DNA of 48,644 nt, counting the filler, from Catajapyx aquilonaris (lineage: Eukaryota), in assembly GCA_000934665.2 (NCBI GenBank). It is 2 parts of 2 records of this genome, joined end to end, with 100 filler letters (N's around TTAATTAATTAA, not from the genome) between each part and the next. Parts side by side here need not be neighbours in the genome. Positions count along the whole stretch, not along the records: positions 1 to 24,243 come from JYFJ02005550.1; 1 more part is not named here. One strand, given 5' to 3'. A program made the translations under genes and the position numbers. Numbering within the stretch: position 1 is the stretch's first letter; every line of letters begins with the position of its first letter. The notes beneath the pieces were generated by a model. That model was not told where the DNA came from. It did no database searches and saw nothing but the letters and a program-made list of their open reading frames with translations. This document shows positions 5,034 through 44,592 of this stretch, one piece after another.

Positions 5034-5714
5034 GCTTGAACTATTAAAATAAAAATTATCTAACTTTCTTGTAACTCCTGCAGATTTACAAACTGAAAAA
5101 CTTGATCAACTGAGAATTATTCAAACAATGATTTTTGCAGTATCTCAATTGATAGAACAAAACTTTGTTTCATTTCTTCATCTTATGTTATTACAAACAA
5201 TTTTAAAAATAGTAACAATTGGTGAAAAAAACAATCTTGGAGGAGATCTTTTAGTCCTCTGGTAGAGAAGCCCTTTCCAGAATTTTAGAATATTTGTTCA
5301 CAACCCCGGCTGCATAGGTGAACCTCATAGTATTCTTTTGACTGTGCTGTAAAGGTGTGTCAAGCACCAGTGCATTAGGTATTCAGTACCAAACTCAAGC
5401 AACATGTGATTTTACTTGCAGTTCACAATGGGAAAGTCATCGGCAATCATCAATTAAGGTGGCATTATTTCTAGTCTCTTATGGGTCACACAGGACAGTT
5501 AAAATCCATATTGGTGAAAATCTGAATATGAACTCAAGTAGACAATTTGGTGTAACAGTGATGTAGGATGTAGGCTAATGCATGGGGCCCACAAAGCTTT
5601 TCAATTATGGTGTAAAAGTTTCTCAAAGGAATATACGAGGGGCGTTCATAAAGTTCACGCCTTTAGGTTGAAGGAAATTAGAGAAATGGTTCAAATTGCA
5701 CACATGTATTAGTC

Positions 5715-5905
5715 ATTCATCATCATCATCATCATCACCATCACGACATTTCCCCCCACCCCCCTGGAAGAGGAATCAGCAACTATTAAGTTCCTCCAAG
5801 TGACTGGAACACCCACAGGCCAGCGAGAAGAACCAGCATACGGAAATCCACACCCGAACTCCAAGTGCTGTGCAGGACAGAGAGAGAGGCAGACACCCTT
5901 GCAAG
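5715..5905 (-). mobile_element. 5'-truncated non-LTR retroposon 3' end
   Basis: 12-bp TSD CATGTATTAGTC (5703-5714, 5906-5917) and a (GAT)n tail on the minus strand. Confidence 0.7.
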
Positions 5906-6174
5906 CATGTATTAGTCCTTCTCTCTATATTAACCCTGCAAAGCCACAATTTTTCCCACCACTACGACCTAGAGACCAAATTACAGAACAAGCAGTGGAA
6001 ACAAAAAACTCTCCACTGGTGAAGAAGGCCAGAATGCAGCCATCATCTGGGGAGGTGTTTTTTCAGGTCGTAAATCACTGGGAAAATTGTGTGGCTTTGC
6101 AGGTTTCATATAGAGAAAAGGACTAATACATGCATGCAATTTGAACTGTTTCTCTCATTCCCTTCAACCCAAAG

Positions 6175-9100
6175 CACAGTGATTCAGATCCAGGTAAAAC
6201 ATGGTCAAAATGTATTTTTTCTAAATATGTGATTTTGAGCCAAAATCGAGTTATTCACATTCACAAATGTCTAGTCCATCACATAGAACACAATTGATCA
6301 CCCCATCTTGCGGCAAATGCCTGCAGCGCTAAGTGAGAGTTGGGACTACTCGCGCGGCTTATGATCTCGGCGAGAAGCCATGTATACCTACCTTTTTTTG
6401 CGTTCTCAAAGGACAGGAATATTTTCAGTGAAAGAAATAAAAAAAATTTCCTACGTCAACTGTTATCCTTACGTTTACTTTAAACACATATATGTCAGGT
6501 TAAAGTCAAGTGTAGTGCTTTAAAAAATGTGTTAGTCATGCCGTGTGACAGTCAAAAACACGTGCGCATTTTTTTCGTATTTGTCGACCTGCAAGATGCT
6601 CCCTGCCTCTCTCCGTGGTTTGTTTGTGTGCACCTGCACCGTGGTGAGTCACTCTATTGGGTCCACAAAAAAAACCTTGCGCCCACGTGCGCTCCTTCTA
6701 AAAATATATTTTTTTATGCGATCGTGCGTGACTAATTTGGTCACAGGCAGGCCTTACTGGTAGTGTGAAGCGAACTGTGGACATGATCGCACGGGCACTT
6801 TTCTGTCCAAATCCTTCAGTGCAGTGAGTTGTGTGAGTATTTGAATGCCTCTAATTTTAGCTAGTGTCATCAGTAGCACAGCGTAGCTTATGTTTAATAT
6901 GTTCAGGTCCAGGCCAGGATGGTAATTAAGATATCACGAAAGGACCTGTTTGGCATTCTTCATGAACAAGGGGGGGCAGGTCGTGCACAGAAGCAAACAT
7001 ACCTGGAGAATTATTTGATCAAGAAACTGCACCTTGAAGAGGAGTGTGATCAGAAGAAGAATGAGATACACATTTTTGTGTCAAAATTCTGCAGCAAGAT
7101 TTTCTCTAGATGGAATGCTGCACAGAGGCATTATGACAAGTTTATGGTGGAAAACGCTGAGTGGCTCAGCAAAGAAGAAGAATTCCAATGTGCGACTGCG
7201 CCTGCCTCCACGGATGCTGGGCCCTCAACGTCAAACACATGTCAGGCAGGACGGCCGAAGAAAAGCTTCCAGGACAGCAGTGAGAGAAGCAAGAGAAGAA
7301 AAACAGAAGATCTTAGAAAATCTTCCAGTGCAGAAGAATTGTCCTTTGCAGCCCAAATGAAGCAGAGAGAGGAAGGCAACGAGGCTGCTGCCAAATTAAT
7401 GAGTGAAGCCAACTTCACAACCCCAACCAGAGCAACAAAAATGAGAGAGGCCTGGAAAAGAAGAGATGACAACCGACAACATGGGACGTACTCAGAAGAT
7501 GAGGCATTGTTATTGGTACTGGAAGCAGACATGACGCAAAAGCAATACGCCATAATGAGATCTAGCGCGAAGGGGAAGCAGTGTGTCCTGTATCCATCCT
7601 ATCACCATGTACTAGAAGCCAAAAAAAGGTGCTGCCCCTCTGGAGAAGACTGCCTTGTGACGGAAAGTACTGCAGAGGTGAAACTGCAGGCGCTCCTAAA
7701 TCACACAGCAAGTCGAATTATAACAGCACAGGAGGCAGTGGTCACTACATTGCCAGACGTCACCAGCTTTGTGTTGATTTCCAAATGGGGGTGTGATGGC
7801 AGTGGTGGCCACTCCCAGTACAAGCAAAGAAGTTCAGAGAAGGGATTCAGTGATGCAGACTTGTTTGTAACATCTCTTGTGCCTCTGCAGTTGTATGGCG
7901 AAACAGCACAGCCAACTGAGAAGAAGATAATTTGGCAAAATCCAAGACCTTCATCAACTCGCTACTGCAGACCCATCCGCCTCCAGTTTAAAAAAGAAAC
8001 AGCGGAGGTTGTGAAGGAAGAACAGGAGCACATTGCAAAGCAAGCTGAAAGCCTGACACCTAGTAGAGCGAATGTGTCAGGGAGAGATGTCAGCATTGCA
8101 CACAAGCTGTACTTTACTATGGTTGATGGTAAAGTATGCCATGCAGTTACGGACACGGCATCCACCCAGAAATGTTATGTGTGTGGTGCAACTCCGAAGG
8201 AGATGAATAACAATGACAACATGATGAAGAAAGAAGCAGATCCAACCAGGTTACATTTTGGATTGTCGACACTGCACGCTTGGATTAGATTCATGGAATG
8301 CTTCCTGCATATTTCCTACAGGTAAGAACTAAAAATTATTTGTGCCGGTACCACTTGTATAAGAGAATGATGAGGTTCCCTCTTCACCTTGCAGGTTAGA
8401 CGTAAAGAAATGGCAGGCACGTGGAGAAGCAGACAAAAAGAGTGTTCAAGACAGGAAAACTAGGATCCAGAAGCAATTTAGAGCGGAATTGGGGCTCCTG
8501 ATTGACCAACCAAAACCTGGAGGATGTGGGAATTCCAATGACGGTAACACTGCGAGGAGATTTTTTCAGGAAGCCTCTTTGTCCGCAAAAATTACAGACC
8601 TGGACGAGACTCTCATTCGGCGCTGTGCTACAATTCTGCGAGCAATTTCATCAGGCTACGATATTGACGCACAAGCTTTTGACGCTTATGCCCTTGAGAC
8701 AGCTCGAAGTTTTGTCTCAAAATATCCATGGTTTTATATGCCTACTACTGTGCACAAAATATTGTTGCATGGCTCCATTATAATTTCGGTTTCAATTCTA
8801 CCTATTGGAATTATGTCAGAGGAAGCACAGGAGGCACGGCATAAGGACATCAGGCATATACGGGAACACCACACCAGCAAGTGCTCCAGGACGGCCACAA
8901 ATGAAGACCTCCTGCACAGATTACTGGAGACTTCCGATCCTCACATTTCATCTATGAGACCACTGCCAAGGAGGAAGGCTAGCAGCATTCCAGCAGAAGT
9001 GCGCCAGCTTCTAAAATCACCGAGAAGTGAAGTTGGATTGGAGCAATCAGATGTGGAAGACAATATCAGCAGTGATAGTGGCCATAGTGATATCAGTGAT

Positions 9101-9392
9101 TAAAATATTTAAAGGTGACTTTTAACTATTAACTTTTCTAAACATTTAACTATATATATAACTTATATGGATTTAAATTTAGCAACCTAATAAACCTAGG
9201 ACAACACTTGTTAAGAAATCAGAGAAGTTTTCTATTTTATATCTGCCATCTTGGACCAGTCATTTTGAATTTCATACACCTGACTTCATATTCGGATTCA
9301 GCAACCTTACAAACCCCAATTTCCCAATTTTCATGTAAATACAACAATCTTGGACATTTTGTCTATGTTTTACGTCGATCTGAATCACTGTG
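6175..9392 (+). mobile_element. full-length Transib DNA transposon
   Basis: 39-bp TIRs (35/39 identical) starting CACAGTG, 5-bp TSD CAAAG (6170-6174, 9393-9397), encodes a Transib transposase. Confidence 0.95.
6919..9103 (+). CDS. Transib (RAG1-core-like) DDE transposase, 2 exons (6919-8321, 8395-9103), 703 aa
   Basis: A 73-bp GT-AG intron (8322-8394) joins LHISYR|LDVKKWQAR in frame. Motifs: KWGCDGS (D293), PSSTRYCRP, TMVDGK (D403), CYVC, LHAWIR, NDGNTARRFF, VHKILLH, SEEAQE (E614). No stops or frameshifts. Confidence 0.93.
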
Positions 9393-9499
9393 CAAAGGCG
9401 CGAACGTTATGAACTCCCCTCGTATGCAAGATTTTCGCTGATATCAATAATTTCACCTAAATTTTTAGATATTGGTCCTATGCCGCCTCGGTGCCTGTG

Positions 9500-16006: not shown

Positions 16007-16402
16007 ATCTGAACTCTGATTTGTGCAGTCATTACGTATATTACAGGCATCCTGTGACAAATTATGACATGGTATATTTATACACTACTGATTACAAGTT
16101 TCATGAACAATATGACAGTGGGACTGACACTGAGGCCATTATAGTGATACAGAATTTTAGGCTTGAGAGAAAATGACCTGGAAGAAGAAAGGAGTACACC
16201 CAACATCATCTGAGGACAACGCCTTGTTTCAACTTCATGTTGAATAAAAAATATTAACAAAACTATTGCACTAAATTGTGGCCATTGCACAACTCCATCA
16301 GTGTCACCATATTTATATAAAAAAAGCAAACATGCATAATTTCATCACTTAAAGTTAAGTGTTGAAGTGTTAAAGTTACATATATAAGGATATGAAACAA
16401 AC

Positions 16403-16744
16403 CTCTTCCTCTCTCCCATGAGTAAGGAGCATGATGATTCTGCCAGCCCTGTTCCTGCCTGTTCTTCCCATCCTTTGTACCATCCTAACAGGCGATTTTT
16501 GGGTATCATAACACACTATAAGATCAACCTCTCCAATGTCAAGTCCCTCTTCTCCAACACATGTGGACACTAGAGTGTTGTACTTTCCTGACTTGAATTC
16601 TTGAATCACTTCCAGTTGCTCCTTCTGGGTGAAGCCTTTTTTGCTCTTAACTCCAGCTACTCCATGGCCCACAAAGCTCATGGGCTTTATTAGGGGATCA
16701 TGACGCCTTAATAACTCGGCAATCTCTTGCACGCTGTTCCGGTA
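16403..16744 (-). CDS. FANCM: FANCM helicase C-terminal (HELICc) exon, motifs V-VI
   Basis: YRNSVQEI...FVGHG...[41 protein letters not shown]...[16 protein letters not shown]. 342 bp, phase 0, canonical splice sites. Confidence 0.97.
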
Positions 16745-19829: not shown

Positions 19830-20198
19830 TAAGTTGAATAAGTACAGTATGCGTACTTTTTGAACCATGATCAGTTTTTGTTGCACATGTCACAAAATAT
19901 TTTGAGCATTTTGTGTTCTGCAACCTAAGGCATCGTGCAAACAAGGGGATTCGAGAGGAGAGAAGTTGCCTGGCCCCTGCCTGAGCGTTCAGGTTTCCCC
20001 CAGGTGGATCCATGTTAGAAATTTGGGCGTGCTCCTGGCGCCTACCGCTGAATGCTTTTTCGAGTGGATTCACGGGCAACTTGTTTTTCCCGAATCCCCC
20101 TGTTTGCCCCAGCCCTAAAGTGGAAATGAACCATATTAATTTGCTTATTATTCTCTCCTTGCAACAACGATACAAATTACACATGTGACAGAACTGAC

Positions 20199-20419
20199 CT
20201 CACAAAATATCATAACCCTGGAACTGGTGTTGTTTGCTGAGTGCTTCTTGAAGTGCTCCTGTACTATCTCACATAATTTCACCATTTTTGGATGCACATC
20301 TGCAGAAGCTTGGCCTGAATCCAGGTCACTATGATCACCTGAGAACCTCTTTTCTAGTTCTGCCATCAGCTTGGAGAGCTCAGGGTGTCGCTGCAATTCC
20401 ACCTTCTTCTCTGCGTGCA
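20199..20419 (-). CDS. FANCM: FANCM exon (HPKM..L to motif IV SRVMIF)
   Basis: VHAEKKVELQRH...VHPKMVKLCEIVQEHF...SSRVMIFCE. 221 bp, phase 1 in and phase 0 out, joining YRNSV of the next exon. Confidence 0.95.
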
Positions 20420-20424
20420 CTAGC

Positions 20425-20442
20425 AATAAATAATAAATAATA

Positions 20443-20496
<54 letters not shown>
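20425..20496. repeat. (AAT)n microsatellite
   Basis: Read directly; other AAT arrays at 24599-24671 and 34910-34988 are SINE tails. Confidence 0.95.
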
Positions 20497-20498
<2 letters not shown>

Positions 20499-20537
20499 AT
20501 AATAAGTTAAGAAATATGCCATCTTAACATTACTTAA

Positions 20538-21559
20538 GCCCGCCAGACACCTAAGTAATTTTTCAGATTCGCGCTTAAAGTTTGGCCGATTCACGGGTGC
20601 AGCCTTCGCTTCGCACTGCCGATGCAGGCGTCTCAATGGAGGTACGGACCTGAAATTTTCACAGCATGGCGAGGAAGGGCCAATTGAACCACCAACGGAG
20701 TTTCGAACAATTAGAATAATAATTGAGAAATCTACAAGGGGAAGAGTTTTGAAAAAAAAGGTCATGACATCTTGGCTCCGGATTCTAATGTGGGAAATAT
20801 CTCGAAGTTGTGCTATGGAAAAAGTTGTCCTCTCTTACTCCTCCAAAGCTCGATTAATTTGGGCTATTGGCTTTTGCACAGCTATTAAAACGGTTTCACC
20901 ATCTCACCTCGTAAAATCAGAGGGAGTACTTCCGAAATAGAACAGTTGGTTCCCTGTTGCCCACACCCTTTTTAAATGATTTAAGGCTGAATCTTCGATG
21001 TATCGCGCAGTCTGGTAGGGGGCGTGGTCGCGCAAAGTGTGACGTATTCCCCGTAACTCCCCGTTTGCGCGCCCCTCCCGCAGGTTTGCGATACGTCGAA
21101 GATTCAGCCCTTAGCCCAAACCGCTTCCCTGGCAACCTGGAAGGGATCCAACTGCTCTACGTTCGAAAGTTCTCCACCGATTTTACGAGGTGAAGTGGTG
21201 AAACCGTTTTAATAGCTATGCAAAAACCAATCGCCCAAATTGATCGCGTTTTGGAGGAGTAAGAGAGGACAATTTTAGCCATCACACAACTTCGAGATAT
21301 TTTCCAAATTAGAATCCGGAGCCAAGATGTCGTGAGGTGTTTTTCAAAAACTCTTCCCCTTGTAGATCTCGCAATTATTATTCTAATGGATCGAAACTCC
21401 GTCGGGGGCTCAACTGGACCTTCCTCGCCATGCTGTGAAAATTTCAGGTCCGTCCCTTCAGCGAGACGCCTGCATCAGCGGCGCAAAGAGAACGCTGCAC
21501 CCGTGACTCCGTCAAACTTGGAACGCGATTCTGAAAAATCACTTAGGTATCTGGCGCCC
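20538..21559. mobile_element. Kolobok-like MITE with ~370-bp TIRs
   Basis: TTAA on both flanks and long imperfect inverted repeats (CGCCAGACACCTAAGT / ACTTAGGTATCTGGCG). Confidence 0.8.
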
Positions 21560-30627: not shown

Positions 30628-32404
30628 CAAGCAAACCTCCTAGGTGTGGGGATCTACTTTTTGAGAAAACTTTCAGGAATGATTAAGACTAGCTTCAGGA
30701 TCACTCTGGCATAGTCCAAACCTCTGTAAAATTCCCAGAATCCTCAGAAATTAACTCCAAACCTAATAATTGTGGGAAGCTACTTTTTGCTGAAACTTTC
30801 AGGAATGATTAAGACTAGCTTCAGGATCACTCTGGCATAGTCCAAACCTCTGTAAAATTCCCAGTAGCCCCAGAGATTGCGTCGAAAGTCCGGGCGTACG
30901 ATTGGGTCTGCCGCCCAAACTGACACTTGCAATCGCATATATGAAAAGGTGAACCCAAATGCCCTCTCCGTGCAGCCTAACAGCAAGCACTCTACTTTGT
31001 TTGACTGTGAGCTGTTTTAAACATAAGTTTATGTGGACAAAGTTGGTAATTTATTATTATACAAAAACTGTCAGTTACCCAACTTAATAGGTCCCACAGT
31101 TCGCTGCATCATGCACCTTTTCCAACGAACAGTGATGGAAGCAGAAGCATTTCTTACAGTGCGCACAGCGGAACTCGGAAACCTCAGTGCAGATATCTTC
31201 GGCGCAGTCACAAAGACTGTCAAAGTCAAAAGAGTACTGTACCGGGGTCTCTTCAAAGGCTTCAGGTCGTTCGGGAGTATATCCACACTTCCGGAATGCA
31301 TACTTGACCATATTCTGGAAGCGTGGCGCTTGGAACTGGAAGTGTGCAAGAGCATGAAGCTTCATGCAGCGCTCCCGCTGCCAGACCTTCTCGTCAATGT
31401 CCAGAGAATCAGTTATGTGCCGTACAAATCTCTTGTATGGGCGAAAGTAGTACACGTCCAGCGGCTGAATCATTCCGGTGGTGGTGCCAGCGGGAATGAT
31501 CAGCCGTTCCACCTCGAGCTGGCCGGTGTGGCCGGTGTACGTACCTGGTGGCGACACGCTGGAAGAGTTCACTATTTTTGTTGCTACTCCAAGAGTCGCA
31601 GAGAAGGAGACACTTGGTGACACCCATCTTGACCATTCCTGGATATAGGATTTGGTCCAGGAAAACCTCCATGTCATCGTTTGTCATCATAGCTGTCGTA
31701 CCGGGGAAGGCAGAAATGCTGTCCGGGAATGGTGCCATCCTCTGCGGCCACTTGCCGTGTGGTTCCTGGCTCTTCAGGTACAGTTTGTCCATGATGGTAC
31801 CGGCCATGCTGACAATAGGCATCACCATGTAGGAGTGGGTGGTGGCGGACCTTGAACCAACTTCAACATGCACCTTGTGCTCACCCTTGAAGGTGTGGGT
31901 GCGGTGAGAGTGGAGCTCCTTGTCGAATCGAGACTGGTCGCAGTTGATGACCTCCTCGGGAAGGTAGCCTTTTTCTTGAATTGTAGACTTCACCAATTTG
32001 ACGAACTCTTCTCCTTTGGCTGCGAGCTTGGCCTGGTTCTGCCAAAAACCTCGACCAACCTTGTGAGTAATAGCACGAGAAACGATTCTATGTCGTTTCT
32101 TGAAATTGTAGAGCCAGGTGTTGGAGGCCTTGAACTTCATGTTGGGGAAGAGCATCTTTTTTATTTGGATGGCCCACTGACGAATGCTTCGGTCAGTGGC
32201 ACGGTCGTTTTTTTGCCGCTTCTCGATGAATCGATCTAAAACACGTTGATTGATTCCCACAATTATTAGGTTTGGAGTTAATTTCTGAGGATTCTGGGAA
32301 TTTTACAGAGGTTTGGACTATGCCAGAGTGATCCTGGAGCTAGTCTTAATCATTCCTGAAAGTTTTCTCAAAAAGTAGATCCCCACACCTAGGAGGTTTG
32401 CTTG
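30628..32404 (-). mobile_element. Tc4/Tc5-like (pogo-related) DNA transposon, internally deleted
   Basis: 151-bp near-identical TIRs (30628-30778, 32254-32404) starting CAAGC; TSD TCA; the empty site reads CTCAG. Confidence 0.9.
31084..32253 (-). pseudogene. Tc5-like transposase (CENP-B/Tc5 HTH, DDD domain, Cys-rich tail); 5' truncated with one frameshift
   Basis: FKASNTWLYNFKKRHRIVSR, NCDQS, ATTHSY, LCDSW, TTGMIQPLDVY, C-terminal CAHCKKCFCFHHC. Frameshift at the GTACGTAC duplication (31537-31544). Confidence 0.85.
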
Positions 32405-33640: not shown

Positions 33641-34909
33641 GGCTCCCCTATCTCGCAACGCTAGCCAGTTGAAGCCCGATACGAGGACACGATGTTAGTC
33701 AGGTCGACTCCCGCCAGAGGCCCTGGCGGTTAGCATCTAATCCTGGTACGCAGCAGATGCATGGGGGGAGTTATTGCTAATGTTGACCAAATCTGTGTCT
33801 GCAGCGAATTAAACACGAAAAATTGTTTGAGGAAGAAAGCAGCAGGTACTGTACGTACTATTGTGTGAAATGGTATTGCAGGCGTTTTTCTGACTTAAGC
33901 ACTCAACAAGGGTTGGACAAAATAACAGGAACACCTGCAAAAAGCGGTTGAGACTTCGCGTCTGTTTTATTCGAAAACTGGAAAAGTTACAAAGATGATT
34001 TTTACCAGGTTTTGAATATCCGTCGATGTACATTTGTGGGGGTATGTAGATGACCCAAAAATCAGGATAGGGGAGAGAAACAAAAGACTAACGACACCCC
34101 CCAGACCCCATTTTTGACCAATGTGTTCAGTACCCTGCATTAATGGCTATGCACAGACATCGCCACCTGGCGGGATTGAGCGGAACTAGGCGTCGCACAG
34201 TGGGGTAATTTGGGTCGAAAAGTTTGACAAAATTATTTCTGTGGGTTTTTGCTTCTAAAATGTTCTGATTCATTAATTTATGAAGTAATAGAGGAAGTAA
34301 AGTAGTTTTTGGTGACAAAAAGGCAGGCAGTATAAGCGGACCTTATACTGGTACAAGCCATATATGTACGAATTACTCCATTTTGTAAGAAACTATTGCG
34401 GATTTCTCAGGATTCGTAGCCAATTTTGGATTTTAATTGTCATATTCGTGATCAGCACATTGAAATCTTTAATAAATGTCTTTAATCTTACAAGTTTGAC
34501 TTTTGTCAAAATTTGTCGCCCAGTGATTCTATCAACACGTTTTTTTTATAGATATTCAAGCTTTTTGTTGACATCTAGGCCTTGTTACTGTTGTATCAAG
34601 TCATATAATTGTCTCCATACCATGACTTTGACTCATGATGACCCTAGTTGAAAGAGAGAGAAAATAGTCGGAAAAAAAGAGGTGCAAAAAACGTTAACAA
34701 CACCGGAGAAAAATGGGGGAGGGGGGGGGGAAATGAAATGGCGGGAAAAGTCGGGCCAGATTCTTTATGAAATAGAAGGCTGACTCTTCTCTCTTCAAAA
34801 TGTCATAAATAACACAGCTCGGAAATCTTCGAAAGTATAACTTAATCATGTTTGAATATTTCACATTTGGCGAAAAAAGTCGACAAATTATTGCATAATT
34901 TCGAGGACT

Positions 34910-34916
34910 AATAATT

Positions 34917-34988
<72 letters not shown>

Positions 34989-35314
34989 CCTGGGGTAGTG
35001 CTTTCACCCCCAGATGGGGGTATATCACACGGACCTTTATTTTATTATTGTACATTGGTGCCTATTCATTGAAGCGCCCGGGCCCAGGGGCAGGATGACA
35101 GGAGGGGATGTGCGAAGTGCAGTGCGCGGACTGTTATGGGTACATTTTGTGAACTCCCCCGGGTGGTTTAGTCTAAGGAAATACCACCCGAGACGAAGCC
35201 AGAGACGACCTAAACTCTGCACGAGATGAAGGGGGNGGGAACCGGGCTGGGATCGAACCCGGGACCTTAACATCCGTGGGCGCGTACGTTACCGCAGCGC
35301 CACTCCGCCTCCCC
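34910..35314 (-). mobile_element. tRNA-Arg-like SINE
   Basis: Paralog of 17226-17556 with a long (TTA)n tail. Confidence 0.88.
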
Positions 35315-36209
35315 AATAATTATTTATAGACTAGTCATATTATTGTAAGATACTCTTTAAAATGAAGTACATACCTTCTTCTGAAGCTTCCATATTGGAA
35401 CAGTTCACAATTATTTTGTATAACTGAAAACAACACAAATGAATGTGTCGCGCCGTAAATTGGGCTTAACATTAGCTAAATATTACTCGAACTGTCATCA
35501 ACTTTCAACTGCTGGTACGGACGAAGGGTTACACCTATGAGAAGTACAACTGCATGTCATAATAGCCTGGTCATTCATCTGTTCCAGGAAACGAATTTTT
35601 TTGGAATCAGTAACATTTAAAAAAAAATCAAATTTTGTCCAGCTTTTGAAGCCAAATACTACACTGTGCGTCGGTGGGCTGTGTCCAAAATACTTTGATA
35701 TCAAGACTGCTCACGAGTCCGCTCTAGAGACGACTCAAGATATTCTTGGTGGATTAACAGGCATTCGCGTGGTCCGTGTAATAACTGGTTCACAACCTCA
35801 ATACATTATTAGAAATCGCAATGGCCTTATAATTCATCCCACATATACGGGGTGCTCAAAAACTCGCGGAAAGTGGCCACGTAGTCTGATAGGACTCGCA
35901 AAACTAATATAGGGATGTGGAAGTAGTTTTGGGCTAACTTGCACAGTTTTTGCGTACGACGCCTTTAAGATTTGGGGGGTTTCATGACGTCACATCCGCC
36001 TTGAGGCCCCATTCCGTCATCATACATGTTGTTGTGGCTGTTGCCATTGGCACAGGTTATTGTTGCGAATATTGTCAACTGCGATTGTTGAGAAATAAAC
36101 AACGAGTTCAGTCTGGTTATTGAGGTGTCGACTTTTCCTGTGTTCCAAAGTTTCTCACATATTAGTCTTCTGAAGAAGTACACCTTCATCTCAGCTGCTC
36201 ATCCTAGAC

Positions 36210-37042
36210 ATGGCATACAGTGCAAGAGACTACTGTGATATGTATCTGCTGCTGCGTGAGTGCGGAAACGCACACGCTGCGGCAGAAGAGTACGCACGGC
36301 GCTACCCTGAGCGAAAACTTCCAACTGGCAACGTCATCCGAAGATTAGATACACGAATGAGGGAAGGAGGACCAGTCATTCCTCAACAGCTGGTGGACAC
36401 AGGTCGTCCGCGAAGTGTATTGACACCAGCAGTAGAAGAAGATATCCTGAAGATGGTGGAAGTGGACCCAACTACGAGTACGCGTGAAATCGGCCGACGT
36501 CTTCAACTGCATCGCAGCTCTGTCTGGAACGTCATGCACAAGGAGGGTCTGTACCCTTATCATTACATGCGAGTGCAGAATTTACAGCCAGGGGATTACC
36601 CTCGCCTCCGGAAGTACTGCGAGTGGCTGCTGCAGCAGGACGAGGCAGATGACAACTTCGTTAGAAGTATACTCTGGACCGACGAAAAGTGGTTCACACG
36701 TGGTGGAATTTTCAACCATCACAATAGCCACTACTGGGCTGCTGCAAACCCCCATGTCGTCCACGAGGGAAGCTTCCAGGTCAGTGCCCACCAGGCAGGG
36801 TCCCCTTAAATAAGTCACCGTTCCAACTCCTTTGCTGTCCCTGCTGCGTCTACTGTATCTGATAACTGTTCCAGGTGAGGTGGCAAATCAATGTGTGGGC
36901 TGGGATCGTGGGTGACGTCCTTATCGGACCCTACCTCCTCCCAACAAGGTTGTCTGCTGACACTTACTTGTCATTTCTGCGGAGTGTGCTGCCAGAGTTG
37001 CTTGAAGATGTGCCGTTACAAGTACGACAAAGGATGTGGTTC
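36210..37042 (+). pseudogene. Tc1/mariner transposase (DUF4817-like HTH N-terminus), spliced and 3' truncated
   Basis: MAYSARDYCDM...YPERKLP, GRPR, LYPYH, WTDE. A 95-bp intron (36780-36874) joins SFQ|VRWQINVWAGI. Homology is lost where FQHDGA is expected. Probable left TIR TA|CGGGGTG at 35848. Confidence 0.85.
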
Positions 37043-39000: not shown

Positions 39001-40479
39001 CACAGTGGCCAATATCAGGAAAAACACGCAAGAAAATGATAGCTCCTAAACTAAACCGTTGAAGTACGTAGAATACATGTCTCCCCATGTTTTCAAGGTC
39101 GCTGATTTCGATTTTTAGGTTATTTTGAAGCTATACCTACAGGGTGTACCAAAAACACACTATGAAATTGACGAACGTGTATAATAAGCATTACAAGTAG
39201 GTGAAAATAACATTTCCCGATGTTTTCGCGGTCCTAATTTTGATTTTTTAGGTTATTTTGTACCAGGACATACAGGGTGTACCATAAAAGACCATCGCAT
39301 TCAAGAACTTGTGGAATCTACATAAAAGTACGGACATGTGAAAATAGTATTTTACCCTTGATTTTACCGTATGTTGGTGGACAATGATTTTGATTTTTAG
39401 GCTATACTGAACCCAGACCAATAGCCTGTATCAAAAACACCGTCAAAGAGATATCGTGGAATAAATAGTACAGTAAAACACGATAGAATATGAAGTGGCC
39501 CCTGAAAGTGAATATCGTAGAATATTTCCTTCAGCTGCGGCTCGCCGCAGCTGATTCTTACTTGGATAGTTTCCCTATTATCCTCAGGTCAAATTAAATC
39601 CAATTTCATCACTGACTCGTACTGACTCCGTTTGGTATGCCTAATTGAACTTCAAAATTTGTGAAAATTTGCAGAATGTTACCAGTTGAAATTTCTCGGA
39701 TGTCCAAGAAACAAGTACCCATTATTGATATTCTGTTAACAGTCCCAAATCCATGCTATACGAGACCAAGTATCTATTTTCCTAAACATTTAATTTTTAA
39801 CATTATGCAATTATGTCAACAGCAGGCGCGTTTCGATGAATCAGAAGAATGCTGAATGTTTGAACCGCGTATTTTGTATATTATTTTATGTTACTTTTGG
39901 AGTGTTTATGGTGTTTATGATACAATTTGTTGGCCTGGGTTGGTTATAACACGATAGAATTTAATAATAGGCCTATATTATAGGCCTATTATTAAATTCT
40001 ATCATGTTATACTGTACTATTTATTCCACAACATCTCAAATTTTACGGGTATTTTTGATACAGGCTCTTGGTCTGGGTTCAGTGTAGCCTAAAAATCAAC
40101 GTCACTGTCCACCAACATTACGGTAAAATACTATTTTCACATGTCCGTACTTATAATGTAGATTCCACAAGTTCCTGAATTTGATGGTCTTTTTATGGTA
40201 CACCCTGTATGTCCTGGTTCAAAATAACCTAAAAAATCAAAATTAGGACCACGAAAACATCGGGAAATGTTATTTTCACCTACTTGTAATGCTTATTATA
40301 CACGTTCGTCAATTTCATAGTGTGTTTTTGGTACACCCTGTAGGTATAGCTTCAAAATAACCTAAAAATCGAAATCAGCGACCTTGAAAACATGGGGAGA
40401 CATGTATTCTACGTACTTCAACGGTTTAGTTTAGGAGCTATCATTTTCTTGCGTGTTTTTTCTGATATTGGCCACTGTG
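39001..40479. mobile_element. non-autonomous Transib with ~490-bp TIRs
   Basis: CACAGTGG...CCACTGTG ends, 5-bp TSD CGACG (38996-39000, 40480-40484), no transposase ORF. Confidence 0.9.
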
Positions 40480-41804: not shown

Positions 41805-44592
41805 TCAGCCATCAGAGAGGTAGGAGAAATGTGCAGACTGCGTCCGCGTCCCTACCCTAATCATTCTCCTCGGATCGGAAGTAGTGGTCATCTGCTGGTC
41901 GTTAAAGTGTAGCCAACTACCTTCACCCTTCACTAAAGCAGTGTAGTGGTTGTAATTCATTGAGACTCCATGGTGTAATAGGATTGTACTGCTTTTGAAT
42001 TGCTTGAATCCAATAATTGATATATGGTAACTAGGTCGAAATCTGTTATGCTGGCGTCCGACCTTTCCCCTCCACTTTCATCGTGACGTTCAAGGTGCAG
42101 GATGAGACAACCGTGTACGTTACTTAAAATGCAGGTCTTGGCAGCAACCCCAGTGCGCTTACAAGACGGGCATGGTACTCCTTCGTCCCTCTGCTGCAAC
42201 AGGACGGAGAGAGACACACACTCTCTCGGCACGATCAGAGAGAGATACCGCCGAGTTTCCTCTGGCCCTTCCCATCTGGCGTGGCAGAAGGAACACTCAT
42301 ATTCATCGTGGCATCGGTGAGTGCCCCAGTCTCTTAGGTGTACAGGCAAATCTTCGAACAGGAATTCGATGAACTCTAAAGAGTCTTGCTGTTCCTCCCC
42401 GTCGAATCCTCTACCCAGAGCTCTTCTGACCCCGAATGACGAGGAAACGACGACGTCATTAGTGGCCGGTGCCGTTGTGTTGGATACTCTCCTCTTCGCA
42501 CGGGGACGCTGAGAAGGTCGGTGTTGTGCGAGAGCTGTTTTTAGGGCCCTTAAAACGCTGTTGCTTCCCTTCGAGGCCGAGATTCTAGTCCTGAGGTCTG
42601 GCTGCACGAAGAGACATACCAAGGCAGCGTTGGCATAGCAAGAAACATTTGGACCTGGATTGTCGAACCCCCTAAGTGATATTTCTGATGCGGAGGAGAC
42701 TGCATGTGGCCGCTTCGTTGTTTTCTTGGGTAAGAGCAATGGAGGCATTGATCGGGTCTCCCGGAGTCTATTGTATTCCCTCACGCAGCTCACGTCGGCC
42801 TTGATGCAGCGTTCATCTAGGCGAAGGATGTGTAGTCTGTCCAGCGCCTGGACTCTCGAGAGCGCGACGTACAGTACGTCATTCCTCTTGCGAACCCGGA
42901 CTTGCTGAGGTCCACCAAAGCGGAATCCAGAGTGAGCCGCTGAGATTTGTGGATGGTGATGGCGTATGCTAGTATCAGTGGAAACCGGACGTGGAAACTG
43001 TTTCCTCTCAGCGTTGGAGCCGAGCTCGAACTTGACAACACACCTGCAGATCGACTTTTCGTCGTTTGGGATGTTGTGAAAGTTGATCTTGACTGACGAG
43101 ATGCGGTGGTTATTCTCCATCCTCCAGCCAGACACGGTGCCCATTGCGCCGTTCACCAGTCCTTCCTGCACGTCGATGTTGCGTCGCAGCATGACGCGGC
43201 ATCCAACTCCCAGGATGAGGACAGTCTCGAGGCCGGCCGTACGCGAGGCGTCCTCTCGCAGACTCTCTAGATGCTTGCTTCCCCTCTTCCAGCCAGCCTT
43301 GTTGCCTGTGAGCTTGTCCTCTGCCTCCAGAAGGACAGTTGTATCCAGGCACGACGCACGAAGCATACGGTGGATGAACTCGTGGCACATGTCGTTGGTT
43401 GGGAGGAGGCACACGGGATTCAATCCTTCTGCCTTGCACCTGCTGTAGATGCTGACGCATGCTTCGTTGTTGCCTTGGATGCCAGCGTGGTGCGGACCCT
43501 GCTTGCCAAGAGATGGAGGGTTGACTCGGAGACTAGGCCCACTCGCACCTCGGCCAGAAGATGCTGGTAGGTGGTGTCCTTTGATTGCCTCATGTTTATG
43601 AGGTGTTCGTCGTAGTCAAAAAGATCTTTCCACAAGTCTAGCGCACGGAGGCTTCTAAATCCGCACCTGCACCGTGAGCATGCTAGAGAGTTGCCGATCC
43701 GGTCTGGAAGTTTGGCCACGTCGCAACCGCTGGCGAATGGAGGGCATCCACCTGGATTCCTCTGTTCTGAAGATGTCATGGAGCTGCTGGAATCGCTTAA
43801 CATATGCGTCTGAGATATGGCAAGTGATGTTGCATCTCCACTTTGCCGAAGGGTCTACCGGGGGAGTCAAGCGTTGGTTGGACTCACCTGTAGAGGGATC
43901 GTCGTAGTGGATGCGTCCACACTCGTCCAGGGCTGGATCACACTCCTCAGTCAGAGGCACTGCAGAGGTCTCCCAAAAGTATGGCTCCGTGTGCTTGGTG
44001 TGAAGACGCTCACCCAATAGTGCAGTAGGGTCTGCTCCTTCTTCCTGGTCCCGCTCTGTGGTTAATTTTTTCTGGATGGTCAGCAGGGAACGCTTTCTTA
44101 GGGAAAATAGCAACCTTTTTTTGTTCAGCGCCTTTAGTACAAGATGCTCGGCCATCTTGTGGGATGCAGACGAGTAGGAATGTCCCTTGCCTATCTTCTG
44201 ATGTCTCTTCTGAAGAGCCTTGTTCAATCTGGCGATCATCCCCTTTTTCTGGTTCTTCGATGCCAGCTGCTGCCGCCTGTCGCGGAGAGAATTGGTCAGG
44301 CGATACTGGATGGCCTTCTTCAAATTTTGGCACTGTTCCTCCTGTAGTGTTTAGCCTTCCTCTTTTTGATCGCCTCTCTATTAACTTTCTCATAAATGGC
44401 CTTCTTCATCCGCAAGGCCTCTCGGTTAACTGCATTATAGACGGCCTGCTTCTTTTGAATAATCTCCTGATTCTTGTTATTGCACCGAGTTTTTCGGCTC
44501 ACCCTAATCTTTTCTTTCTTGTAAATTTGGGAATTTTCTTCAACATACCTCGCCTTGCGGGCTTTGCTGAGTCTCTCTGATTTTTTTGTCAT
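41805..44592 (-). pseudogene. decayed Helitron/Helentron-like ORF: basic N-terminus, PIF1 helicase C-terminal half, USP (peptidase C19) domain
   Basis: PIF1 motifs: INMRQ, CLLPTN, GCRVMLRRNIDVQEGLVNGAMGTV, QFPLILAYAITIHKSQRLTL, YVALSRV. USP motifs: GFDNPGPNVSCYANA, QQDSLEF, CxxC pairs, LILHLER, HHG..NHYT..WLHFND. Several frameshifts. Confidence 0.8.

Follow-up and report, generated by a model that had tools for sequence, protein, structure and literature searches.

The locus

The window analysed here, the whole 48,644-nt stretch of DNA from the Catajapyx aquilonaris assembly GCA_000934665.2, contains a complete Transib element of 3218 bp at positions 6175-9392. The element is bounded by 39-bp TIRs identical at 35 of 39 positions (left or 5' TIR, 6175..6213, plus strand; right or 3' TIR, 9354..9392, minus strand), and comparison of the flanks identifies CAAAG as a 5-bp TSD (6170..6174 and 9393..9397, plus strand). 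It sits in the right arm of an older, TA-flanked inverted-repeat element (5634..9424, no strand assigned), which we take to be mariner-like. When the Transib and one TSD copy are removed in silico, this arm is restored and aligns without gaps to the other arm, and CAAAG, found on both sides of the filled site, is present once in the rebuilt empty site.

The sole gene of the element lies on the plus strand and consists of exon 1 (6919..8321), which carries the match to HzTransib (E 5.6e-55), a GT-AG intron of 73 nt placed from the reading frame (8322..8394), and exon 2 (8395..9103), which completes a spliced frame of 703 aa with one stop codon; neither a second long ORF nor a RAG2-like partner was found within the 3218 bp. 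In agreement with the sequence-only reading of this DNA, the HzTransib match, the CAAAG duplication and the RSS-like TIRs identify the element as a Transib, and the defining traits of this superfamily, i.e., a RAG1-core-like DDE transposase, ~38-bp TIRs starting with CAC, a 5-bp TSD and a single gene, are all present. Judged by its sequence, it is apparently intact, a clean Transib with the textbook likeness to RSS23. Fourteen related ends occur in its own genome (8 left, 6 right); the other copies seen are truncated at the edge of a contig or have lost internal sequence and are 91-100% identical over the aligned parts, with TSDs of CACTG and CTCTG in two deleted copies.

Several other features surround the element. 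A Helicase_C exon at 16376-16681, with further parts at 20148-20765 and 830-2902, all on the minus strand, belongs to a gene that is presumably FANCM-like, and the Transib probably lies antisense in one of its introns. A second Transib-type element, of a different family and with no transposase match, is located at 34196-35668 (TSD CGTCG), and a third at 39001-40479 (TSD CGACG); the latter contains a long internal inverted repeat (39156-40324) and shows A runs at 20-24 and 33-36 with no GG before the distal run. An ORF on the minus strand (41957-43390) that combines Pif1 2B and ubiquitin hydrolase domains is probably a piece of a large mobile element, and remnants of Tc5/pogo-type and Tc1-type transposases are found at 30702-32330 and 36210-36809.

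The transposase and its predicted DNA-binding regions

The profile of the transposase matches RAG1 and RAG1L chains, and the catalytic motifs holding D293, D403 and E611 are intact. Upstream of the core, aa 110-166 (7246..7416, plus strand) form an NBD-like region that starts with GRPKK (motif at 111) and is predicted to adopt the three-helix NBD fold. All 106 aligned proteins have R112, and 97% have R/K123; these residues align with R391 and R402 of RAG1, which contact the A/T core of the nonamer and its C2:G pair (PMC6941560). Foldseek placed RAG1 complexes in the top rows for this region, at an E of 0.23 only, and returned nothing at E 0.001 or better for either the NBD or the N-terminal model. 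A homodimer prediction for aa 105-234, run without an alignment, scored 0.22, which speaks neither for nor against an NBD dimer that binds two boxes.

The first 90 residues (6919..7188, plus strand) are predicted with a pLDDT of 94 and a pTM of 0.83 to form a separate helical domain, a candidate second DNA-binding domain. The fold matches of both regions are middling. For the NBD-like model, Z is 5.2 against the RAG1 NBD-DNA structure 3GNB (rmsd 2.2 over 57 residues). For aa 1-90, the highest Z, 6.7, is reached with 1CF7_B, the winged-helix DNA-binding domain of DP (rmsd 2.5, 68 residues), followed by 5.2 with E2F8; at Z under 8, this likeness may reflect a common helical arrangement. Pfam gave no match to the N-terminal part, and an ESM Atlas search with aa 1-95 no usable one. 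The domain was found in 22 of the 24 elements tested, with conserved basic residues at K/R64 and R70.

Both regions are missing from the solved HzTransib chain, which starts at profile position 180. An NBD with GRP occurs in both Transib subgroups (PMC9435367). Subgroups I and II are told apart by the alpha11-alpha12 region and the type of CTT (Tao 2022, PMC9435367); the symmetric TIRs and the closeness to HzTransib suggest that the studied element may belong to subgroup II.

Sequence of the two ends

As the sequence-only reading had described, both ends carry CACAGTG at TIR positions 1-7 (6175..6181 on the plus strand at the left end), identical to the RSS consensus heptamer (PMC1131882), and AAAA at both 22-25 and 33-36, the places of the A runs in 12RSS and 23RSS, respectively. 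AAAA occurs at any fixed place in the whole window with a frequency of 0.013, but the two ends are one inverted repeat and hence not two independent observations. They align without gaps (28/32 over positions 8-39), differ at positions 17, 19, 29 and 31, and diverge past position 39. The earlier count of four mismatches stands; functionally, though, the one at position 29 does not count as lying between the blocks, given that it falls on a GG that is conserved across families.

This GG opens the distal box (TIR 29-38), which lies at 6203..6212 on the plus strand at the left end and at 9355..9364 on the minus strand at the right end, and which, with its GG and its nonamer-like run of A at spacer 23, is likely the site bound by the NBD. 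At the right end, position 29 (9364) departs from the GG of the 5 other right ends of the family: it is G in 5 of the 6, and the A is private to the studied copy. The mid-spacer element of the left end (6193..6199, plus strand), with GG at 19-20 and AAAA at 22-25, would need one more matching base to fit the distal box pattern, whereas the AAAA of the right end (9368..9371, minus strand) has no GG before it. Positions 17 and 19 are fixed left/right differences in the family, so that GG at 19-20 is found on the left only. AAAA at 22-25 is seen in all listed family ends, which says little because the family is too young.

Comparison with the RSS nonamer separates the two blocks. At spacer 23, where the sequence-only reading had rightly placed the equivalent of the RSS23 nonamer, the ends match at 5/9 and 6/9 positions. 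At spacer 12 both match at 4/9 and show no local maximum, with spacers 10 and 11 equal or better (left 5 and 5, right 6 and 5, of 9) and spacer 17 reaching 6/9 at the right end. Read as a 12RSS nonamer, the proximal block has A5 and A6 and a T in place of C2, whereas C2 is present in the distal box of both ends. A matrix built on the distal box scores 9.6 and 6.4 for the two ends at start 29. Shifted to offset -11 it gives -5.1 and -9.3, compared with ~+14 for real 12-type ends; at offset -10 the left end scores +3.9. With the box at spacer 22-24 at both ends, the element is by these measures a symmetric 23/23-type Transib. An asymmetric 12/23 Transib was also considered and was rejected on the gapless alignment of the ends and the negative scores at offset -11.

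The distal box across families

The ends of other Transibs were collected from 20 of 79 transposase matches in the own genome and 80 of 128 metagenome loci, to which 60 further regions, picked by eye from pattern hits, were added. This yielded 83 distinct ends in 30 clusters, of which 76 long ends in 27 clusters were analysed; the seven left out are L053_5 (unpaired and probably no end), two box-less MITE ends and four short-type ends that were analysed apart. A second set of 14 transposase-bearing elements (26 long ends) was called by paired ends only, with no box criterion. Left out of it were L066, L106, L122, L123 and L126 as near-duplicates, the inner L047 pair, the offset L071 pair and the second L097 pair, and the L059, L061 (outer) and L065 pairs, which by eye are no Transib ends. 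The L047 Transib (L047:2783-6581) has a 5' end duplicated 523 bp apart, with the same 5-mer before both copies.

The conserved distal element reads GG-N-C-A-W-A-A (GG-A/C-C-A-A/T-A-A in the 27 clusters) at a spacer of ~22-23. GG starts at 28 or 29 in ~25 of the 27 families, in a set partly selected on the box; in the 14-element set, 23 of the 26 long ends have a GG start at 27-30, and the full box occupies the distal place in 17 of 26 and the 12 position (start 17-19) in 0 of 26. Heptamer plus box at spacer 22-24 gave 221 matches in the own genome against 8 in the control, and at spacer 11-13 gave 21 against 16, with no TSD-flanked pair from those 21 loci; looser heptamer patterns were diluted by chance hits. 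The family signal, as far as these alignments go, is GG plus a nonamer-like run.

The spacer 11-13 pattern search showed no short-type Transib family in the own genome. It did return five near-identical heptamer-plus-box hits at spacer 13 (C249, C3158, C5904, C9301 and C9578; L180, L183, L188, L193 and L194), with no partner end within 1.5 kb, which could be a short-type end or a piece of another repeat.

An A/T tract in the middle of the spacer

Four consecutive A/T within positions 19-26 are present in 23 of the 26 long ends of the 14-element set and lacking in 3, with AAAA in the mid-spacer of 11 and TTT in 6. Among family-weighted long ends, 85% have such a run, compared with 25% of shuffled spacers (0 of 3000 shuffles reach the observed value) and 40% of rotated spacers (0 of 5000 rotations); the 19-26 window was chosen after inspection of the profile, and both nulls overstate independence because the families share ancestry (mean spacer identity 0.37). 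Positions 22 and 24 have A/T contents of 0.94 and 0.95, made up of A as well as T; by polarity, 44% of family-weighted long ends have AAAA and 20% TTT. T runs at the mid place are also seen in three Drosophila families, TransibN1_DP, TransibN1_DM and Hopper (PMC1131882, Fig S4 consensus lines). On these comparisons, the conservation of a mid-spacer A/T tract among families is real.

The sequence-only reading had named a lack of conservation of the A-tract positions among related families as a ground for refutation, and the 19-26 run shows that this outcome did not arise. The conservation is loose: with families weighted, 13% of long ends have AAAA exactly at 22-25, whereas the rotation null gives 6% and equals or exceeds the observed value in 231 of 5000 rotations. 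The exact 11-bp register is thus a property of the studied element's own family, and the looser run is general. Nor do the data agree with the proximal block as a 12-spaced nonamer. GG is present at offset -11 in 4% of families, the distal matrix averages -8.7 there and peaks broadly at -12 to -13 without rising above zero, and the lack of C2, the negative scores of the studied ends and the T runs of several families complete the picture. Because it drifts over 19-26, is often a T run and has neither GG nor C, the tract is most likely no second nonamer.

A further A/T peak (0.85) lies at TIR 14-15 across families, flanked by G/C-rich stretches at 8-11 and 17-18. A strict 10.5-bp periodicity was considered and rejected, the A/T peaks at 14-15, 20-24 and 33-36 being ~8 and 12 apart.

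Natural 12-type ends and the transposase tree

Four ends, in L078, L100, L104 and L083, have a full box starting at 18 or 19, with matrix scores of 11.7 to 14.4, and all four short-type ends found are 5' ends. Two belong to natural asymmetric Transibs (12/22 or 12/23) that have both the NBD motif and the N-terminal domain (L078:13-4624 and L100:91-4497); for L083 and L104 only the short 5' ends are available. To align through the box, the 5' and 3' ends of L078 need a net gap of 10 bases and those of L100 one of 11, compared with 9/32 and 15/32 matching positions in gapless alignments. In mid-spacer, the long ends of both elements show a run of T or of mixed A/T, not AAAA. Short-type ends show a second A run near 29-36, and in L089, a metagenome family, the nonamer is matched at 7/9 positions at spacer 12.

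In a quick LG+G4 tree of 24 transposases with a midpoint root only, the short ends fall in two clades, and a forced single clade is rejected (p-AU 0.026, in a test run after the first tree was seen). The studied transposase falls within a starred clade of 12 families with long ends, none of which showed a short end. Hence, from the indel alignments and the tree, asymmetry here amounts to one box having moved, and the studied element shows no sign of a basal position. Ends of the 12 type apparently arise by a box shift of 10-11 bp, and have done so more than once. This goes against the earlier view of the studied ends as a precursor of 12/23 asymmetry, since the natural asymmetric elements shift the whole box by an indel of 10-11 bp.

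Comparison with known systems

Transibs with symmetric RSS23-like ends and others with asymmetric RSS12/23 ends have both been known since 2005 (Kapitonov and Jurka, PMC1131882). The studied element resembles the symmetric TransibN1_DP, TransibN1_DM and TransibN1_SP in its ~38-bp TIR, heptamer, A-rich block ~23 bp away and 5-bp TSD (PMC1131882), and shares with the first two a distal A run preceded by GG and, at 22-25, an A/T run (PMC1131882 supplement), which is of A in the studied element and of T in these Drosophila families. The asymmetric Transib5, Transib2_AG and TransibN1-3_AG (PMC1131882, Fig 4C legend), like L078 and L100, use the same heptamer and distal box with a short 5' and a long 3' end; they have one box per end at unequal distances, whereas the spacer is 23 at both ends here. 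HzTransib (PDB 6PQN and related) shares the catalytic core and the 5-bp TSD and differs in its shorter solved chain and in TIRs that are described as little nonamer-like (PMC4840297). In Nozomi/Hopper, the Transib Nozomi has 37-bp TIRs and N-terminal helical domains, likened here by description (bioRxiv 10.64898/2026.08.26.747230).

Outside the Transibs, V(D)J RSSs and the RAG1 NBD (3GNB) have in common with the studied element the heptamer, a nonamer whose first six bases approximate the distal box, the GRP motif and the NBD fold, but the element has no RAG2-like gene, its ends are symmetric, GG precedes its box and no CC closes its nonamer. The TIRs of PflRAGL-A share the heptamer and an A/T-rich nonamer-like block, and its NBD has GRPR/K; it differs in having RAG2L, TR2 and a 10-bp spacer asymmetry (PMC10462144). 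Kapitonov and Jurka (2005) call the Transib spacer "variable", and the text passages do not describe a mid tract (PMC1131882). No statement on mid-spacer tract conservation or on overlapping 12/23 sites was found in the available text of the Transib and RAG literature covered (PMC1131882, PMC9435367, PMC4840297, PMC10462144, PMC8355894, PMC8289069, PMC6941560, PMC7337519, PMC7204232, PMC12337333 and bioRxiv 10.64898/2026.08.26.747230); the 2005 logo (Fig 4A) may show the tract.

What the mid-spacer tract may do

The explanation that we favour, and to which we give about an even chance, treats both ends as those of an ordinary symmetric 23-type Transib, each composed of heptamer, distal box and a mid-spacer tract that acts through DNA shape. 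The parts themselves are seen, i.e., the heptamer, the box at spacer 23 and, among relatives, a mid A/T run of either polarity. By analogy with HzTransib and RAG, a transposase dimer would cut at the heptamer via a nick and a hairpin, and the GRP-led NBD would bind the distal box in the manner of RAG1 on the nonamer. The tract would offer a narrow minor groove, a bend point and possibly a site for an HMG protein, letting both long ends curve to the NBD dimer, much as in the 23RSS, whose spacer is strongly bent and requires HMGB1/2 (PMC6941560). A spacer of 23 exceeds one of 12 by one turn, so that a mid-spacer tract falls near the 12 position, and in the studied family it would simply happen to land exactly on it, with Transib 12/23 asymmetry produced by gain or loss of 10-11 bp ahead of the box. 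Counting against the shape model are the polarity of the tract, which is not fully free because A runs are about twice as frequent as T runs, the A/T peak at 14-15, which a single bend does not explain, and the 3 of 26 long ends that have no A/T run. Alternatively, the N-terminal helical domain, held by a short linker to the NBD, might be a second module that binds the tract, such that two domains read two sites. This is possible, if on the whole unlikely: the confidently modelled domain, its resemblance to DP and E2F8, its conserved basic residues, its wide occurrence and its absence from the solved chain of HzTransib, an element with little nonamer-like TIRs (PMC4840297), would all suit such a role, whereas the fold matches stay below Z 8, Foldseek returned nothing at its threshold, the domain is also present in the tract-less L080 and in asymmetric elements, and the polarity of the tract varies.

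The proposal of the sequence-only reading, taken here to mean that each end has a pair of NBD sites separated by one turn, is usable as 12 or as 23, and is a precursor or relic of 12/23 asymmetry, strikes us as quite improbable. The exact 11-bp register of the studied element and the conservation of the tract among families speak for it, as do the left GG at 19-20, fixed relative to the right end and scoring +3.9 at offset -10, the fact that all four short-type ends are 5' ends, like the left near-box, the L089 match and the second A run of the short-type ends. These points have to be set against the absence of any full box at the 12 position among the 26 long ends and the mean of -8.7 at offset -11, the T runs, the indel origin of asymmetry in L078 and L100, neither of which has a mid A run in its long end, the nesting of the element among long-ended families with short ends in two clades, and the view of asymmetric TIRs as ancestral (Tao 2022, PMC9435367). 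Most likely, then, the tract is neither a second nonamer nor a 12/23 precursor. The wider version, in which the ends of NBD-bearing Transibs present two phased A/T sites of which either may be engaged, the left end here being a relic or an incipient short box, and which would permit 12/23-like pairing without RAG2, is a long shot. If the tract has no present function, it would be an inheritance, perhaps a decayed duplication of 10-11 bp that once lengthened a 12 spacer to 23; positions 19-28 of the left end do resemble 29-39, the families are related, and indels of 10-11 bp occur. We hold this to be improbable too, in view of transposases that are ~40-55% identical and spacers that are 37% identical: despite such divergence, positions 22 and 24 reach an A/T content of 0.94-0.95, A and T both being in use, which argues for selection on composition.

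Implications

Were the dual-register reading true, the studied element would form with L078 and L100 a one-protein series for the origin of the 12/23 rule, and would mark a route to 12/23 asymmetry without RAG2. As it stands, the studied element and either L078 or L100 provide matched 23/23 and 12/23 substrates, and the Transib spacer so far called "variable" holds a conserved A/T run of either polarity, a small, testable addition to what is known of these ends.
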